From: Escherichia coli
GTDB taxonomy: Bacteria > Pseudomonadota > Gammaproteobacteria > Enterobacterales > Enterobacteriaceae
Direction: 5' to 3' (one strand)
DNA length: 64,000 bases
NCBI RefSeq assembly: GCF_003334815.1
Contig: NZ_QOWO01000014.1
The notes under the pieces were generated by a model that had not been told where the DNA came from, did not search any database, and saw nothing but the letters and a program-made list of their open reading frames with translations. Numbering within the stretch: position 1 is the stretch's first letter; each line of letters opens with the position of its first letter. Both the position numbers and the translations under genes were made by a program. Below are positions 1-8,372 of the stretch, piece by piece.

Positions 1-87
1 TCAGATTCATCAGCATACTGTCATGACCCGCCACCGGGATAACCTGCATTTCAGTAACAACAGGCGTCGTAAATTGAGAACTCATAT
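1..87 (-). CDS. gudD: Glucarate dehydratase, N-terminal 29 codons only (gene runs off the window start)
   Basis: Reverse complement of 1..87 translates [28 protein letters not shown], closely paralogous to the gudX N-terminus; lies downstream of gudP-gudX on the same strand. Confidence 0.8.
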
Positions 88-105
88 TTATGTCCTTTTT
101 CAGAA

Positions 106-1446
106 TCAATGACGGCCGAAAACGGGACGTTTACGGTCAAAGGTCCAGCCGGGGATCAGGTACTGCATCGGACCTGCGTCGTTACGCGCACCGCCAGGCA
201 GACGTTTATAGGCCTCATGTGCCTTTTGTACCTGTTCCCAGTCCAGTTCCACGCCCAGACCGGGCGCATCAGGAACGGCAATTTTTCCGTTTTTAATCTC
301 CAGCGGATTTTGGGTCAGGCGACAATCGCCCTCCTGCCAAATCCAGTGGGTATCGATAGCGGTAGGATTACCCGGTGCCGCCGCGCCCACATGGGTAAAC
401 ATCGCCAGAGAGATATCGAAATGGTTATTAGAATGGCAGCCCCAGGTCAGCCCCCAGTCGTCGCAAAGCTGCGCCACACGGACTGCACCGGAAAGCGTCC
501 AGAAGTGCGGATCGGCAAGTGGAATATCTACCGCATTGAGCATCACCGCATGACCCATTTCGCGCCAGTTGGTGGCGATCATGTTAGTCGCGACGGGCAA
601 GCCGGTCGCCCGTCGAAATTCCGCCATCACTTCACGTCCGGAGAAGCCCTGTTCTGCGCCGCATGGATCTTCGGCATAGGTAAGAACATCATTCAGCCCT
701 TTGCATAAAGAAATGGCTTCATCAAGCAGCCATGCACCGTTGGGATCAACGGTAATCCGCGCATCCGGGAAGCGTTTCTTCAATGCACGAACAGTGTCGA
801 TTTCTTGCTCGCCAGGTAACACGCCGCCCTTAAGTTTGAAATCTTTAAAGCCGTAGCGATCCTGTGAGGCTTCCGCCAGACGCACAACGGCTTCGCTGTT
901 CATTGCTTTCTGATGCCGCAACTGATACCACTCATGGTTGCCCGGCGTATTTTCCACATAAGGAAGATCGGTTTTGGTCCGATCACCGATATAAAACAGA
1001 TAACCGAGGACGGTAATAGCCTCGCGTTGCTTGCCTGGCCCTAACAGTTCGCAGACCGGAACATTCAGCGCCTTACCTAGCAGGTCAAGCAAAGCGGCTT
1101 CCAGCGCCGCCACGGCGTTAACGCGTAATTCAAAGGTCCAGGCACCTTTACCGAAGGTATCAAAATCGGCGGCCTGATTACCTTTATGCACCTGCTGGAC
1201 CACTTTATTCAGTCGCGCAACTTCCTGGCCCAGAACCATCGGAATAGCATCGACAAGCGTCTGATAAATCACATCTCCGCCCGGCGCTTCACCAATGCCG
1301 GTATGCCCGGCGTTATCGGTGAGTACCACAATATTGCGGGTGAAATATGCGTTATGTGCCCCACCAATATTAAGCAACATGCTGTCATGCCCGGCCACCG
1401 GAATGACTTTCATATCAGTAATAACAGGACTGGATTGTGTCGCCAT
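106..1446 (-). CDS. gudX: Glucarate dehydratase-related protein (enolase superfamily)
   Basis: ORF track 106..1461; product begins [24 protein letters not shown], so I trim the start to the ATG at 1446; 1 nt from gudP stop. Confidence 0.88.
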
Positions 1447-1447
1447 C

Positions 1448-2800
1448 TTATTGCCCCGCAACAGGTTTCAACTCGATACGCTTGATATCGCCCACCAGCA
1501 CCAGGTAGCTCAGTACCGCGATTAAGGCATGAACACCAACATAAATCAGCGCCCCATTAAACGAGCCAGTCGTGCCAACGATATAACCAATTGCGATTGG
1601 CGTGACGATGCCAGAAATGTTACCGAACATGTTGAACAGGCCACCGGAAAGACCGCTGATCTCTTTTGGCGCGGTATCTGCCATTACTGCCCAACCCAGC
1701 GCCCCGATGCCCTTACCGAAGAAGGCCAGCGCCATAAAGCCGATGATCATCCACTCAACGTTGACGTAGTTGCAGAACACCATCACCATCGACAGCAACA
1801 TGCCCATTACGATCGGTGTTTTACGCGCAATGTTCAGCGATCCCGTGCGGCGCATCAGCCAGTCGGAAATAATCCCACCCAGCACACCGCCGATAAAACC
1901 GCAAACCGCCGGAACGGAAGCCACAAAGCCCGCTTTCAGAATCGACATCCCGCGTGCCTGCACCAGATAAACCGGGAACCAGGTAATAAAGAAGTAAGTC
2001 AGGGCGTTGATACAGTACTGACCGATATAAACGCCGATCATCATCCGTGACCCTAGCAGCTGTTTGATCTGCCCCCACTTCACGCTGAACGGCACTTTAA
2101 CTTTGGTGTTTTGCTGATCCATATTGATCAGCGCACCACCCGCGGCGATGTACTCCAGCTCTTTCTTATTTACCCCCGGATGTTGATTTGGCTCGTGGAT
2201 GACTTTCAACCAGATAAAGCTGATGACAATCCCCAGACCGCCCATAAAGAAGAAGACGTGTGACCAGCCCACTTCATGCGTCAGCCAGCCCATAATCGGC
2301 GCGAAGATCACCGTTGCGAAGTATTGAGCGGAGTTAAAAATCGACACCGCCGTTCCCCTTTCCTGCGCCGGAAACCAGGCCGCAACAATGCGACTGTTGC
2401 CGGGGAAAGATGGCGCTTCAGCAAGCCCGACCAGGAAGCGCAGCGTAAACAGGGCAACGATAATGCCGAATCCACTAAAGATATCGACGAAGCCTTGCAG
2501 CAAGGTAAACATCGACCAGATAAAGATCGACCAGAAGTAGACGCGTTTTGAACCAAAACGGTCCAGCAACCAGCCACCAGGGATCTGCCCGATAACATAA
2601 GCCCATGAGAAAGCAGAGAACACATAGCCCATTCCCACGGGATCAAGGCCGATATCTTTGGCCATTTCCGAACCGGCGATAGAGAGCGTAGCGCGGTCGC
2701 CGTAGTTGAAGGATGTGACGATAAACAACATCACCACTATCCAGTAACGAGCATTTGTGCGTTTTTCCACACTGCTCGCAGCCTGACTTAAAGAACTCAT
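1448..2800 (-). CDS. gudP: MFS transporter, D-glucarate/galactarate permease
   Basis: 450-aa ORF with 12-TM hydrophobic profile and MFS motif GDRATLS...; first gene of gudP-gudX-gudD. Confidence 0.9.
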
Positions 2801-3234
2801 TGTTGCACTCCTGAAAATTCGCGTTAGCCACGCTCACTCTGGACTGCGACATCGCCAGGAAATCAGAGGTGACGTAGGGTGTTTTTTGCCGTTTTTATAG
2901 GTCGTTCGCCGAATACGGCGCGTGTTTATATCTGGCAATAGCAGTATAAAAAGCGCGCCATAGCGGCTCACCGTGCAACAACACAACATTAATGCGTTCA
3001 ATGAGGCCCGATTTTGGCATTAGCCCTGGACGGTGGAATCCACTTCACGGAAATGAAAACAAGAACAAGAAAGGAAGGGTTAAAACGAAGAAATAAAGAA
3101 GAGTATGAAATGGATCGCTTGACTCCAGGCAAACGCCAGTAAAAATCCGCGCTATGAAGCAGTTTTTACTGGCATTTGCCTGAAAAGATTCGATTCAGCA
3201 CCGCTAAAACGACATTTACCGCTCGCTGAACATA

Positions 3235-3684
3235 TCAGGACAACAGCGTGCCCCACTGTTCGACCCACGGATTTGATTCCGTTTCCGGTTCCGGGTTCTC
3301 ACTGGCGTCAATCAACAGCATTTCGCCAACCCGCTGAGCGCTCTGTTCCTGCAACAAGGCATCGAACTGTTTGCCGCCATTGCAGAAATTCACATAACTA
3401 CTGTCGCCGAGCGCAATCACGCCATAACGCAGATTCGGCTGGAAGCCCAGACTATCTTTGATTCCCTGAAAGAGTGGCACAATGCTATCAGGAAGGTCGC
3501 CCTGCCCGGTCGTGGACGTAACCACCAGAACATACTTATCCTGATAGGGCAGCCAGTCGCTTAATTCAGGATCTTCAAATACCGTTGCTTTGTGGCCCTG
3601 CGCGGTCAGAATCGCTTCCGCTTCTTCGGCCACTAACAGTGAATTCCCGTACATGGTGCCGACAAAAATACCAATTTCCGCCAT
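3235..3684 (-). CDS. yqcA: Flavodoxin-like protein
   Basis: 149-aa ORF, N-terminal [15 protein letters not shown] and [11 protein letters not shown] flavodoxin FMN-binding signatures. Confidence 0.88.
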
Positions 3685-3701
3685 ACCGTTTTCTCCCTGG
3701 A

Positions 3702-4484
3702 TTAGGAACTTATCTCTCCATCCTGACCCGATGGCGCACTGAACTCAACCCTTTCATTTTCAGGAAGCAGACCGCGCCAGCCAAATTGTGATAACGCCTG
3801 CATCCAGGTGTCGTCCAGGCCCGCGTGAATAGTCAGCGGCTCGCCAGTAAAAGGATGCGTCAATGACAACTGACTGGCATGTAGCATTAACCGCTGGAGG
3901 CCAAAATGCTCAGCACCGCTGCGATTCTGGCGTAAATCGCCATGTTTGCTATCGCCAATAATCGGATGACGCAAATGGGCAAGATGTCGGCGAAGCTGAT
4001 GTTTGCGTCCGGTTTTCGGCTCCAGTTCCACCAGGCCGTAGCGCGTGGTCGGGTAACGTCCGGTCGCTACCGGCATTTCTACGGTCGCCAGACCGCGATA
4101 ATGCGTCACTGCTGGCTGCGGGCCTTTATCTTCGCGGGCAAATTTATCAGCGATTTTGTCCAGTTCTTCCACCAGTGGATAATCCAGCACCGCTTCTTCC
4201 ATCAACCAGCCGCGCACAATCGCATGGTAACGTTTCTGGATTTGGTGCTGTTCAAACTGTTGTGCCAGCAGCCGTCCGGCCTCGCTGGATAATCCCATCA
4301 ACAACACACCAGAAGTGGGTCGGTCCAGACGATGAGCAGTAAAAACATGCTGGCCTATCTGGTCACGCACGGTTTGCATGACCACTACTTTCTCGTCGCG
4401 ATCCAGCCAGCTGCGGTGAACCAGCCAGCCGGAGGGTTTATTTACCGCAACCAGCCATTCATCCTGATAGAGTATTTCCAGCAT
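3702..4484 (-). CDS. truC: tRNA pseudouridine(65) synthase (RluA family)
   Basis: 260-aa ORF with RluA-family motif [13 protein letters not shown]; overlaps yqcC stop by 1 nt. Confidence 0.88.
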
Positions 4485-4813
4485 TAGCTCGCATCATCCG
4501 CAAAAAGAGCATCCAGTTTTTCCAGCTCAGCCAGAATAAGCGCGCGTTGCGGATGGTCCGTCGCCAGCGCCATTTCATAATAGGGTGCAACGGCAAAAGC
4601 GCCCGGTAACGGCTGTTTGTTATCTAACAAATCGTGCATTCGCGGGATCAGCACCCACTGCAACCACTCCAGTGGTTCCATGGTGTCCATAAAGAACGGT
4701 TGGGTACTATTAAATTGATGCGGCTGGGGTTCATCGTTTCGCCAGTGCTGATGTTCACGCAGTAACGCTTCAAGCGCCTGCAACTGGAGACGAACGCGGT
4801 CATGAGTGGTCAT
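4484..4813 (-). CDS. yqcC: DUF446 family protein
   Basis: 109-aa ORF MTTHDRVRLQLQALEALLREHQHW...; position between truC and csrB. Confidence 0.82.
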   Translation of the reverse strand: MTTHDRVRLQLQALEALLREHQHWRNDEPQPHQFNSTQPFFMDTMEPLEWLQWVLIPRMHDLLDNKQPLPGAFAVAPYYEMALATDHPQRALILAELEKLDALFADDAS

Positions 4814-4855
4814 AAAGCAACCTCAATAAGAAAAACTGCCGCGAAGGATAGCAGG

Positions 4856-5224
4856 AATAAAAAAAGGGAGCACTGTATTCACAGCGCTCCCGGTTCGTTT
4901 CGCAGCATTCCAGCTACTTTTGTTGCTCCCTGCTCATCCTTGACAACTTTTCCTCTGGCCTTGCGGCCAATCGTTCATCCTGAACTATTGCTTCCTGCTC
5001 ACACCACCCCGATGTGATACTTCATCCTGAAGTGTCCCTGGCCTTCCTGACCCACCGAATCATCCTGACCGGTTCTCATTCTCCATCCTGGAGGTGTCCT
5101 TTAACGCGTCCTGCGTCATCCTCTTCGCTTCATCCAGAAGCCTTTCCCTGAAACACCATCCTGGTGTGTCCTGCAGAAGTGTCATCATCCTGATGTTCAC
5201 TTCGTTGTCTGACTCCCTGTCGAC
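4856..5224 (-). ncRNA. csrB: CsrB small RNA (CsrA-sequestering); ends approximate to within about 5 nt
   Basis: Minus strand carries about 18 repeats of CAGGA(U/A)G / AGGA motifs (seen as catcctg / tcctg on plus strand 4930..5220) and ends in a GC hairpin plus U-run (plus 4857..4889); no credible ORF. Confidence 0.85.
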
Positions 5225-5397
5225 GAAGATAGAATCGTCTTTTTCGCGAAGTCTTACAAGGCGCTTACAGACAATGCCTTAAGGAAAATTTCATATGAAA
5301 GTTAAGAATTAACAATCAACATTTTGATTTTAAATGAAAATAACGATTCTTATCTTTTTAAGTATTCGCTTATTTCCTGGCGATCTCCTACAGAGTC

Positions 5398-5415
5398 TGT
5401 AAGAGATCTCTCACA
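5398..5415. promoter_or_regulatory. 18-bp near-palindrome TGTAAGAGATCTCTCACA, matches the UvrY/SirA response-regulator site upstream of csrB
   Basis: Near-perfect inverted repeat about 175 bp upstream of the inferred csrB 5' end; recalled consensus TGTGAGAGATCTCTTACA. Confidence 0.6.
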
Positions 5416-5434
5416 ACCAGATGGGGTATTTGGA

Positions 5435-5980
5435 TTACAGAAGAGGCTTAAGTTGATTAAGGAATTCCGCAAGATTTGAGGCTAAATGCGTCCGTTTACG
5501 TGTTCCCAGCGTCTCTTTGCACACTTCACCGGAGAGATTACACACCGAGATGACCTCTAACTCTTCTTCCAGCGTCGCGATAAATAGTGTGGGCGGCAGT
5601 TTTAGCCTTTTCTGAGTCACCAGATGACCAATCAGATTTTCCTGCACCCGACGGAAGTCGTCTTCACTCCAGGTTTGCAGCAATGTCAGTTTGATATCGC
5701 CAAACTGCGCGTGCATATCCCCGGCAAACTGAGTCGTATAAAAGGTATGAATTGTGGGTTGTATCACAATATCAAAAGCGCGTTCAACCGCGTTTACATT
5801 TTGTTCCCCGGTAAACGGCTGGGGTTGCCAGTATACGGCATCTTCGGTAGTTGAAATAATGCACGGTGAAGGAACACCGTACAGTTCCTCACTTAACGGC
5901 CAGCTTTTATGCTCTTCATGCCACGCATCGCAGTAGCGTGCAGTAAAATCTTTCAGGGCTTGTGCGGTCAAATCGTCCAC
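5435..5980 (-). CDS. syd: SecY-interacting protein Syd
   Basis: 181-aa [43 protein letters not shown]... Confidence 0.88.
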
Positions 5981-6047
5981 TAATTTCTCTCTTCACTTAA
6001 ACCAGATACACTTGTCGTTTAGTTTATCTGGTTTATGACGGTGAAAC

Positions 6048-6896
6048 ATGTCTTCTTATGCAAACCATCAGGCACTTGCGGGCCTGACTCTTGGAAAATC
6101 AACCGATTACCGGGATACCTATGACGCCAGCCTACTGCAAGGCGTTCCACGCAGCCTGAATCGCGACCCGCTGGGTCTGAAAGCGGATAACCTGCCTTTT
6201 CACGGTACGGATATCTGGACGCTGTATGAACTTTCCTGGCTGAATGCGAAAGGTTTGCCGCAGGTCGCTGTCGGTCATGTTGAACTTGATTACACCAGCG
6301 TAAATCTGATTGAGTCGAAGAGTTTTAAGCTCTATCTCAACAGTTTTAACCAGACGCGTTTTAATAACTGGGATGAGGTGCGCCAGACGCTGGAGCGCGA
6401 CTTAAGCACTTGCGCTCAGGGTAAGATTAGCGTGGCGTTATATCGTCTTGATGAACTGGAAGGCCAGCCGATAGGTCATTTTAATGGCACTTGCATTGAT
6501 GACCAGGATATCACTATCGATAACTATGAATTCACTACTGACTATCTGGAGAATGCCACCTGTGGTGAAAAAGTAGTGGAAGAGACGCTTGTCAGCCACC
6601 TGCTGAAATCAAACTGCCTGATCACCCATCAACCAGATTGGGGTTCGCTCCAAATTCAGTATCGTGGACGCCAAATTGACAGAGAAAAACTGCTGCGTTA
6701 CCTGGTCTCATTCCGTCATCACAACGAGTTCCACGAACAGTGCGTGGAACGCATCTTTAATGACCTGTTACGCTTCTGCCAGCCAGAAAAATTGAGCGTT
6801 TACGCACGTTATACCCGTCGTGGCGGTCTGGACATTAACCCGTGGCGCAGTAATAGCGATTTTGTCCCATCGACCACAAGACTGGTTCGGCAATAA
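6048..6896 (+). CDS. queF: NADPH-dependent 7-cyano-7-deazaguanine (preQ0) reductase
   Basis: 282-aa [38 protein letters not shown]...; two-domain QueF type. Confidence 0.9.
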
Positions 6897-7007
6897 ATTT
6901 TTTCTCAATTTTGCGTGCTGGATTCACGCAGAAGGTTGTGAAAGGTCATCAGGCAGGGCTATTGTAATCAAAGGGAATGACGATATTCGTCCCATAAGGA
7001 GTTTTTC

Positions 7008-8372
7008 TTGATTACACATATTAGCCCGCTTGGCTCCATGGATATGTTGTCGCAGCTGGAAGTGGATATGCTTAAACGCACCGCCAGCAGCGACCTCTAT
7101 CAACTGTTTCGCAACTGTTCACTTGCCGTACTGAACTCCGGTAGTTTGACCGATAACAGCAAAGAATTGCTGTCTCGTTTTGAAAATTTCGATATTAACG
7201 TCTTGCGCCGTGAACGCGGCGTAAAGCTGGAACTGATTAATCCCCCGGAAGAGGCTTTTGTCGATGGGCGAATTATTCGCGCTTTGCAGGCCAACTTGTT
7301 CGCGGTCCTGCGTGACATTCTCTTCGTTTACGGGCAAATCCATAACACCGTTCGTTTTCCCAACCTGAATCTCGACAACTCCGTCCACATCACTAACCTG
7401 GTCTTTTCCATCTTGCGTAACGCTCGCGCGCTGCATGTGGGTGAAGCGCCAAATATGGTGGTCTGCTGGGGCGGTCACTCAATTAACGAAAACGAGTATT
7501 TGTATGCCCGTCGCGTCGGAAACCAGCTGGGCCTGCGTGAGCTGAATATCTGCACCGGCTGTGGTCCGGGAGCGATGGAAGCGCCGATGAAAGGTGCTGC
7601 GGTCGGACACGCGCAGCAGCGTTACAAAGACAGTCGTTTTATTGGTATGACAGAGCCGTCGATTATCGCCGCTGAACCGCCTAACCCGCTGGTCAACGAA
7701 TTGATCATCATGCCAGATATCGAAAAACGTCTGGAAGCGTTTGTCCGTATCGCTCACGGTATCATTATCTTCCCTGGCGGTGTGGGTACGGCAGAAGAGT
7801 TGCTCTATTTGCTGGGAATTTTAATGAACCCGGCCAACAAAGATCAGGTTTTACCATTGATCCTCACCGGCCCGAAAGAGAGCGCCGACTACTTCCGCGT
7901 ACTGGACGAGTTTGTCGTGCATACGCTGGGTGAAAACGCGCGCCGCCATTACCGCATCATCATTGATGACGCAGCTGAAGTCGCTCGTCAGATGAAAAAA
8001 TCGATGCCGCTGGTGAAAGAAAATCGCCGTGATACAGGCGATGCCTACAGCTTTAACTGGTCAATGCGCATTGCGCCAGATTTGCAAATGCCGTTTGAGC
8101 CGTCTCACGAGAATATGGCTAATCTGAAGCTTTACCCGGATCAACCTGTTGAAGTGCTGGCTGCCGACCTGCGCCGTGCGTTCTCCGGTATTGTGGCGGG
8201 TAACGTAAAAGAAGTCGGTATTCGCGCCATTGAAGAGTTTGGTCCTTACAAAATCAACGGCGATAAAGAGATTATGCGTCGTATGGACGACCTGCTACAG
8301 GGTTTTGTTGCCCAGCATCGTATGAAGTTGCCAGGCTCAGCCTACATCCCTTGCTACGAAATCTGCACGTAA
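7008..8372 (+). CDS. ppnN: Nucleotide 5'-monophosphate nucleosidase (LOG-family, YgdH)
   Basis: 454-aa ORF starting at TTG 7008 with AAGGAG Shine-Dalgarno at 6996..7001; LOG motif [10 protein letters not shown]. Confidence 0.88.

Follow-up and report, generated by a model that had tools for sequence, protein, structure and literature searches.

The stretch of E. coli DNA analyzed here, hereafter the window, is 64,000 nt long and K-12-like, and its coordinates equal those of MG1655 minus 2919300. The yqcA gene (positions 3235–3684, minus strand, with the stop codon at 3235–3237) is the last gene of yqcC-truC-yqcA, and the next gene downstream, gudP (1448–2800), is also encoded on the minus strand. 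Since both flanking genes have this orientation, the 434-bp spacer between them comprises the 3′ region of yqcA, followed by the region upstream of gudP. The RefSeq annotation of MG1655 places nothing within this spacer. The yqcA-gudP arrangement is widespread in Enterobacteriaceae, and the comparative set used in this work consisted of 80 loci gathered through YqcA (individual loci are cited by their L numbers where they need to be told apart). No main text was found in the literature in which yqcA and gudP appear together, the papers on yqcA being concerned with the flavodoxin structure, and nothing about promoter architecture was found in the literature on CdaR and gudP or on CRP and gudP. 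On the other side of the operon, the CsrB small RNA (Rfam RF00018, 380 bits) was located at 4856–5215 on the minus strand, in its expected place between yqcC and syd. The features of the spacer are collected in Table 1.

Table 1. Features of the yqcA-gudP spacer in window coordinates, with the basis of each assignment
Feature	Position	Strand	Basis
Predicted gudP −10 hexamer TATACT	2943..2948	−	Conserved in all genera examined
Conserved block TTTTCATTTCCGTGAAGTGG	3040..3059		Opens the universally conserved region upstream of gudP; holds the ATG of the 29-codon ORF (opposite strand)
Pyrimidine-rich, G-poor tract (purine-rich on the plus strand)	3053..3110	−	Composition; separates two conserved blocks
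29-codon ORF, judged not to be a gene	3053..3142	+	Length drift, substitution pattern, profiling list, no family
Conserved block TCAAGCGAnnnnnnTCA(C/T)A, CRP-like	3101..3122 (center 3111.5)		Invariant columns; adjoins the hairpin
Mapped steady-state yqcA 3′ end	3117..3120 (MG1655 2922417–2922420)	−	TRS, PMC10687069
yqcA 3′ untranslated region	3118..3234	−	Stop codon and TRS 3′ end
RNA stem-loop in the yqcA 3′ untranslated region	3126..3182	−	20-bp stem with one G-U; 4 further inner bp beyond a 1-nt bulge

The most prominent element of the spacer is a long inverted repeat, for which the preliminary description had given arms at 3126–3145 (caggcaaacgccagtaaaaa) and 3163–3182 (tttttactggcatttgcctg) and a 17-nt loop (3146–3162). 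The repeat was recovered exactly in this form, including its single arm mismatch between c3134 and a3174, which is a C-A mismatch on the plus strand and a G-U pair on the minus strand. Its location downstream of the yqcA stop codon was also correct, but the distance is 52 nt and not 50 nt as had been claimed. The hairpin is the top-ranked inverted repeat of the whole window, and all 5426 complete E. coli genomes contain it as a single copy. Its arms are invariant in the sampled E. coli strains, in which variants are confined to the loop or to positions outside the hairpin. The folding energy of the minus-strand RNA is −47.4 kcal/mol (z −6.43; none of 200 shuffles was as good) and that of the plus-strand RNA is −39.6 kcal/mol (z −5.50), and the minus strand has a folding advantage of 8–9 kcal/mol. 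The yqcC-truC-yqcA transcription unit is closed by a stable, GC-containing stem-loop (−40 to −47 kcal/mol). The hairpins of Escherichia exceed those of other genera in stability (−27 to −40 versus −11 to −28 kcal/mol), and the gene strand is the more stable strand in all Escherichia sequences. A mild strand signal is also found in the core stem, in which 30 G-U wobbles contrast with 16 A-C mismatches, and within Escherichia the majority of stem substitutions are G-U wobbles when read on the gene strand.

Two side observations concern the DNA of the hairpin and its surroundings. A 10–11-nt mini-palindrome, GGCWWWTGCC, is present in both arms (3130–3139 and 3170–3180) and in the conserved block upstream of gudP (3015–3025, GGGCTAATGCC), and it lets each hairpin arm fold a small alternative hairpin. 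In two E. coli strains, rearrangement breakpoints lie close beside the hairpin, which is kept in both (aligned to 3045–3260): in EC6563 (L084), gudPXD is wholly absent and barA faces yqcA, with the junction at ∼3078 inside the purine tract, and in 2014C-4135 (L087) the sequence diverges to the left of ∼3118.

The position of the yqcA RNA terminus is available from published TRS data (PMC10687069), in which a minus-strand terminus is listed in three tables (Supplementary Data 2, 3 and 4). The dominant position is 2922417, 2922418 or 2922420 and the peaks span 2922415–2922428, with a signal of 0.57–0.89 and adjusted p-values that are significant in two or three libraries per table. The terminus is annotated there as ‘Distant primary’, with a 118-nt 3′ untranslated region and no U-run longer than 3. 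It is located 6–9 nt (∼8 nt) past the last pair of the stem at 3126 and is not preceded by a U-tract; the RNA ends in ...CCUG-GAGUCAAG, with one U in the tail GAGUCAAG. Read density in the same data set (PMC10687069) is 0.26–0.45 in the 3′ untranslated region, compared to 0.14–0.16 in the coding sequence, and this 2–3-fold difference is compatible with a protected 3′ fragment. At yqcA/gudP (coordinates 29223xx–29224xx), Adams et al. 2021 report neither a 3′ end nor a bicyclomycin-sensitive (Rho) region, and the SMRT-Cappable-seq tables contain no entry for the locus. These two negative results carry little weight because expression of the locus is low.

A homologous hairpin was found in 28 of the 80 fetched loci. 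In Citrobacter, Superficieibacter, and sequences of the Raoultella terrigena type, the apex is a canonical terminator that consists of an unrelated GC stem and a run of five or six U (for example, CCUUUC-AUUU-GAAAGG-GUUUUU), and the Citrobacter locus L009 was called terminator-like; when these hairpins are considered as a whole, the next element is UUUUCA. The U-run of the orthologues is always located on the 3′ side when read on the gene strand, and the A-run on the 5′ side is often imperfect. This consistent placement of the U-run indicates that the element is oriented on the yqcA/gudP strand. A core stem of 11–12 bp is kept across genera, with compensatory changes. Analysis by explicit pair counting and covariance-model realignment showed that pair 42/74 is CG in nine loci, AU in seven, UA in three and UG in two, and that pair 44/72 is UA in 17 loci, CG in two and GC in two. 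The covariation scores of 0.177 and 0.163 were above 500 of 500 and 499 of 500 shuffles, respectively, and above every slid control. With modest counts and related sequences, the covariation supports the pairing but does not prove it. Since the loops and inner stems cannot be aligned, no consensus structure emerged from RNAalifold applied to the raw MAFFT alignment of 29 orthologues. A covariance-model search of all 81 sources recovered only the 29 orthologues and weak or palindromic matches, with no further copies.

The lowest eight pairs of the stem are restricted to Escherichia. In this genus UUUUCA(U) is now UUUGCCUG and pairs with CAGGCAAA on the 5′ side, so the helix is longer by 5–8 bp, and the inner GC stem is weakened; in E. 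coli, the inner stem has 4 bp with a wobble, and the U-run is buried in the long helix. The best reading of these alignments is that the E. coli stem-loop descends from a canonical intrinsic terminator, which can still be recognized in Citrobacter, Salmonella, Superficieibacter and Raoultella. In many genera (L008, L009, L020, L023–L025, L047–L059 and others), an extra hairpin, CCCUCC...GGAGGG, is found directly past the yqcA stop codon, in the first ∼100 nt, and the same genera contain a conserved stretch of ∼60 nt (GCCAGTAAGCAAAA..AACGACC..ACTGAATCGAGTTAGC) before the second hairpin, which is mostly lost in Escherichia. In those genera, the extra hairpin and this stretch could be part of a tandem terminator arrangement or of a small transcript that has escaped annotation.

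The hairpin is probably a 3′-end-defining, exonuclease-blocking stem-loop of the yqcC-truC-yqcA mRNA, derived from an ancestral intrinsic terminator, to which read-through RNA is trimmed back. Its proposed role as an RNA on the yqcA strand, in 3′ end formation or stability, is in agreement with the mapped minus-strand end just past the stem, the better fold of the minus strand, the prevalence of G-U substitutions within Escherichia and the compensatory changes in the core stem, which is maintained between genera. In the mechanism that we envisage, the inverted repeat would form the final structured part of the mRNA once transcribed, and the resulting stem-loop of ∼24–27 bp would define and protect the 3′ end. 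Since no U-tract follows the stem and the end nevertheless lies 8 nt beyond it, we infer that the end most likely arises from exonuclease trimming: read-through RNA would be stopped by Rho or cut by an endonuclease in the unstructured, G-poor, pyrimidine-rich tract downstream, and 3′-to-5′ exonucleases (PNPase, RNase II) would trim the longer transcripts back to the stem. One point that counts against trimming is the distance of 8 nt between the stem base and the 3′ end, which is the geometry of hairpin-driven termination as well.

The composition of the tract that follows the hairpin is distinctive. On the gene strand it contains 25% C versus 8–11% G, with 17 YC dinucleotides over 81 nt; it ranks among the 0.6% of windows with the lowest G fraction, and U is more abundant in it than C. 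The same DNA had been described as about 90% purine on the plus strand between 3053 and 3110. This figure is too high, the value being 84.5% (49 of 58 nt), but the strong purine bias is real, and it is the maximum among 58-nt stretches in the window. The excess of C over G is independent of U-tail loss, as it is also observed in genera with a retained U-tract. The pyrimidine-rich strand of this tract could serve for the loading of Rho or the entry of an RNase, as predicted from its composition.

Among the alternatives, a working intrinsic terminator, at which RNA polymerase would be released ∼8 nt past the hairpin or at the short UUU run with no trimming involved, fares best, and weak hairpin-driven termination at a pause-like site is a serious competitor, although we regard it as clearly less likely than trimming. 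The orthologous hairpins are canonical terminators, and the distance of 8 nt between stem and end is as expected for this type of release. The end sequence also fits, by inspection, the consensus for transcriptional pausing, G(−10)...Y(−1)G(+1), with G at −10, C at −1 and G at +1. The absence of a Rho region from the calls of Adams et al. at this locus is a further point in its favor. However, the E. coli tail GAGUCAAG and the longest U-run near the end, which is 3 nt long, fall short of the U-tract of ∼7–8 nt that directly follows the stem of an intrinsic terminator and contains the RNA end, and the reported ends are located beyond both the internal U5 run and the UUU run, with none at either. 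The position of the ends past both U-runs of E. coli, together with a tail that has one U, makes canonical intrinsic release unlikely. A simple terminator scan of the E. coli yqcA-gudP spacer also gave no minus-strand call, but the scanner misses orthologous terminators in which the A- and U-runs are paired (e.g. L080), so this negative result is weak when taken alone.

The comparison between genera can be carried one step further, to a reading that we offer tentatively. Escherichia may present a natural and datable switch of terminator type, in which the U-tail was lost by mutations that lengthened the helix as well, and the ancestral terminator became a ∼27-bp U-less cap that needs Rho or a nuclease acting downstream in the pyrimidine tract; the duplex might then be a substrate of ProQ or RNase III, and yqcA read-through and gudP regulation are possibly coupled. 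Terminator-type switching through uridine loss is predicted by Dar & Sorek 2018 (PMC6061677). If the switching reading is true, coupling of read-through to regulation of the glucarate transporter could follow from the fact that the yqcA 3′ end abuts the CRP-like gudP site.

It is improbable that the yqcA 3′ untranslated region functions as a regulatory RNA or as a ligand of ProQ/Hfq, of which the hairpin and the conserved 5′ flank CUGAAUCGAGUUAGC would act in trans. The idea draws on a conserved single-stranded block that is found immediately 5′ of the hairpin in many genera, although this flank is altered in E. coli. An A-run is paired with a U-run at the stem, and such pairing has been reported for ProQ ligands. 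The 2–3-fold higher abundance of the 3′ untranslated region relative to the coding sequence would also be in line with a regulatory RNA. Against it, an Rfam scan of positions 1–8000 (E ≤ 1) matched only CsrB and nothing in the intergenic region, and no mention of yqcA was found in the main text of RNA papers. In the TRS analysis (PMC10687069, Supplementary Data 4), yqcA is not an outlier for 3′UTR-derived transcripts in any of the three libraries, and no nearby transcription start site is listed. The independent small RNA that had been considered earlier is thus unsupported by this one comparison of 3′ untranslated region and coding sequence.

An RNase III processing site, used either for decay of the yqcA operon mRNA or for its separation from gudP read-through, is somewhat less probable again. 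The duplex of at least 24 bp exceeds about two helical turns, is nearly perfect, and was lengthened specifically in Escherichia, all of which would suit this enzyme. The steady-state 3′ end, however, is located outside an intact stem and not inside it.

The DNA beyond the mapped end contains conserved elements that point toward gudP rather than yqcA. The gudP upstream region (2943–3059, minus strand) has the order TTCCGTGAA...GGGCTWWTGCC...TGTGTTGTTGCACGGTGAG...TATACT, which is conserved in all genera examined, and TATACT is the probable −10 hexamer of an activator-dependent promoter. The block at 3040–3059 reads TTTTCATTTCCGTGAA on the gene strand, and that at 3101–3122 reads TCAAGCGAnnnnnnTCACA. 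The latter is present also in genera that lack this hairpin and have a different terminator, and judging from its distribution it probably belongs to the distal regulatory DNA of gudP. The CRP consensus is TGTGA-N6-TCACA, with G5, G7 and A8 and their mirrored positions as the key bases. We take the block at 3101–3122 to be a candidate CRP site, as its invariant columns coincide with the key consensus positions; its right half-site is TCACA in most genera and TCATA in E. coli. The CRP-like block and the CATTTCCGTGAA block, also conserved, are 72–73 nt apart in 32 of 32 loci (3044–3122 in the window; L003–L082), with unrelated intervening sequence, and in two genera (L033 and L043) this distance is 11 nt (one helical turn) shorter, at 61–62 bp. 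Constant spacing across unrelated sequence suggests helical phasing of proteins that would bind the DNA upstream of gudP. The TTTCATTT..CCGT motif was also found in the garP-garD spacer (L083, ∼6970–6990) and may be a putative CdaR site. A sigma54 promoter in TGGCATTTGCC was ruled out by inspection, the GG-GC spacing being wrong.

The proximity of these elements raises the question of whether the repeat acts as DNA, either as a palindromic protein site or cruciform in the gudP region or as part of a CRP-dependent antisense promoter on the plus strand, and we consider this very unlikely. The flanking conserved blocks do have a spacing that preserves helical phase, and the GGCWWWTGCC mini-palindrome of each arm recurs near the gudP promoter. 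A promoter-like TTGACT-16-AAAAAT is also present on the plus strand at 3119–3146, with the CRP-like site at −41.5 from an implied start at ∼3153, in the hairpin loop. However, the −10-like AAAAAT is unconserved outside E. coli and E. whittamii, so the promoter match is probably a coincidence. The arms covary instead of being fixed in sequence, and between genera the inner stem and loop differ wholly yet still form stems. Enterobacter and related genera, moreover, keep the gudP promoter region but have a REP-like palindrome in place of the hairpin. As for a dispersed repeat or mobile element, it is ruled out by the single copy per genome.

The preliminary description had further noted a small, lysine- and arginine-rich plus-strand ORF (MKTRTRKEGLKRRNKEEYEMDRLTPGKRQ) that runs from the purine tract into the hairpin. 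It exists as described, a TTG-started version of 42 amino acids is listed as well, and the weakness of its Shine-Dalgarno sequence was borne out, the sole SD-like bases being an unusable GGAA at 2 nt from the ATG. That the 29-codon (or 42-codon) frame encodes a small basic protein is hardly credible. It is intact in five of six Escherichia lineages, and in a minority of genomes (one in a sample of 30) the 42-aa form is annotated by PGAP as a hypothetical protein. Elsewhere, however, the frame is between 3 and 82 codons long and its sequences are unrelated past codon 2 or 3, so that only ATG-AAA is conserved, and in one Escherichia lineage (L006) it is interrupted by a stop at codon 11. Synonymous and non-synonymous changes occur at about equal frequency, no NCBIfam match was found, and the ORF is missing from the ORF tables of Stringer et al. 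2021, the single ribosome-profiling data set consulted. The conservation of the ATG is explained by its being the reverse complement of a CAT in the conserved block at 3040–3059. From these comparisons, the ORF appears as a by-product of the purine tract and the conserved DNA block and not as a gene.

For annotation, the stem-loop gives the yqcC-truC-yqcA operon the 3′ boundary that it had lacked, and the spurious PGAP hypothetical protein can be removed. The locus also provides a clean comparative example of an intrinsic terminator drifting into a U-less protective stem-loop. While the overall result will not surprise specialists, the lineage-specific conversion of a terminator to a 27-bp U-less cap is modestly new, and a second new angle is the placement of this cap directly beside a CRP-like site that is phase-locked within the control region of gudP. 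The CRP-like block at its fixed distance of 72–73 bp (or 61–62 bp) may be of more use to studies of the control of glucarate utilization, a pathway that experiences selection in the inflamed gut.

When the yqcA stem-loop is compared with known elements, it is apparent that it shares traits with several of them. It resembles 3′UTR-derived small RNAs and ProQ-bound 3′ ends in its terminator-type hairpin, paired A/U base and conserved flank, but unlike 3′UTR-derived small RNAs it is neither a TRS outlier nor accompanied by a nearby transcription start site. It is similar to REP/BIME elements in being an intergenic palindrome downstream of a gene, and Enterobacter has a REP-like palindrome at the equivalent position; however, it is single-copy in the 5426 genomes and A/T-rich, in contrast to the GC-rich REP consensus. 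With intrinsic terminators it has in common the location at an operon end, an inner stem flanked by an A-run (5′) and a U-run (3′), and an RNA end ∼8 nt away from the stem base. It differs from them in E. coli by an inner stem of 4 bp with a wobble, a buried U-run and a one-U tail, whereas the orthologues from Citrobacter, Raoultella and Superficieibacter conform to the type. In Rho-dependent transcripts, Dar & Sorek 2018 (PMC6061677) described a stable stem-loop with no U-tract at the steady-state end, an excess of C over G directly downstream, and trimming by PNPase and RNase II. The yqcA element is like these stem-loops in its precise end past the stem, the lack of a U-rich tail, the G-poor downstream sequence with more C than G, and its location at the far end of an operon with weak expression. 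It has the structural traits of that class (PMC6061677), its dependence on Rho and exonucleases would be presumed, and one bicyclomycin data set has no Rho region here; at ∼24–27 bp its stem is also much longer than typical terminator-like stems. Seen against these systems, the yqcA hairpin, though unannotated, works like an ordinary 3′ stem-loop that protects or terminates a transcript.
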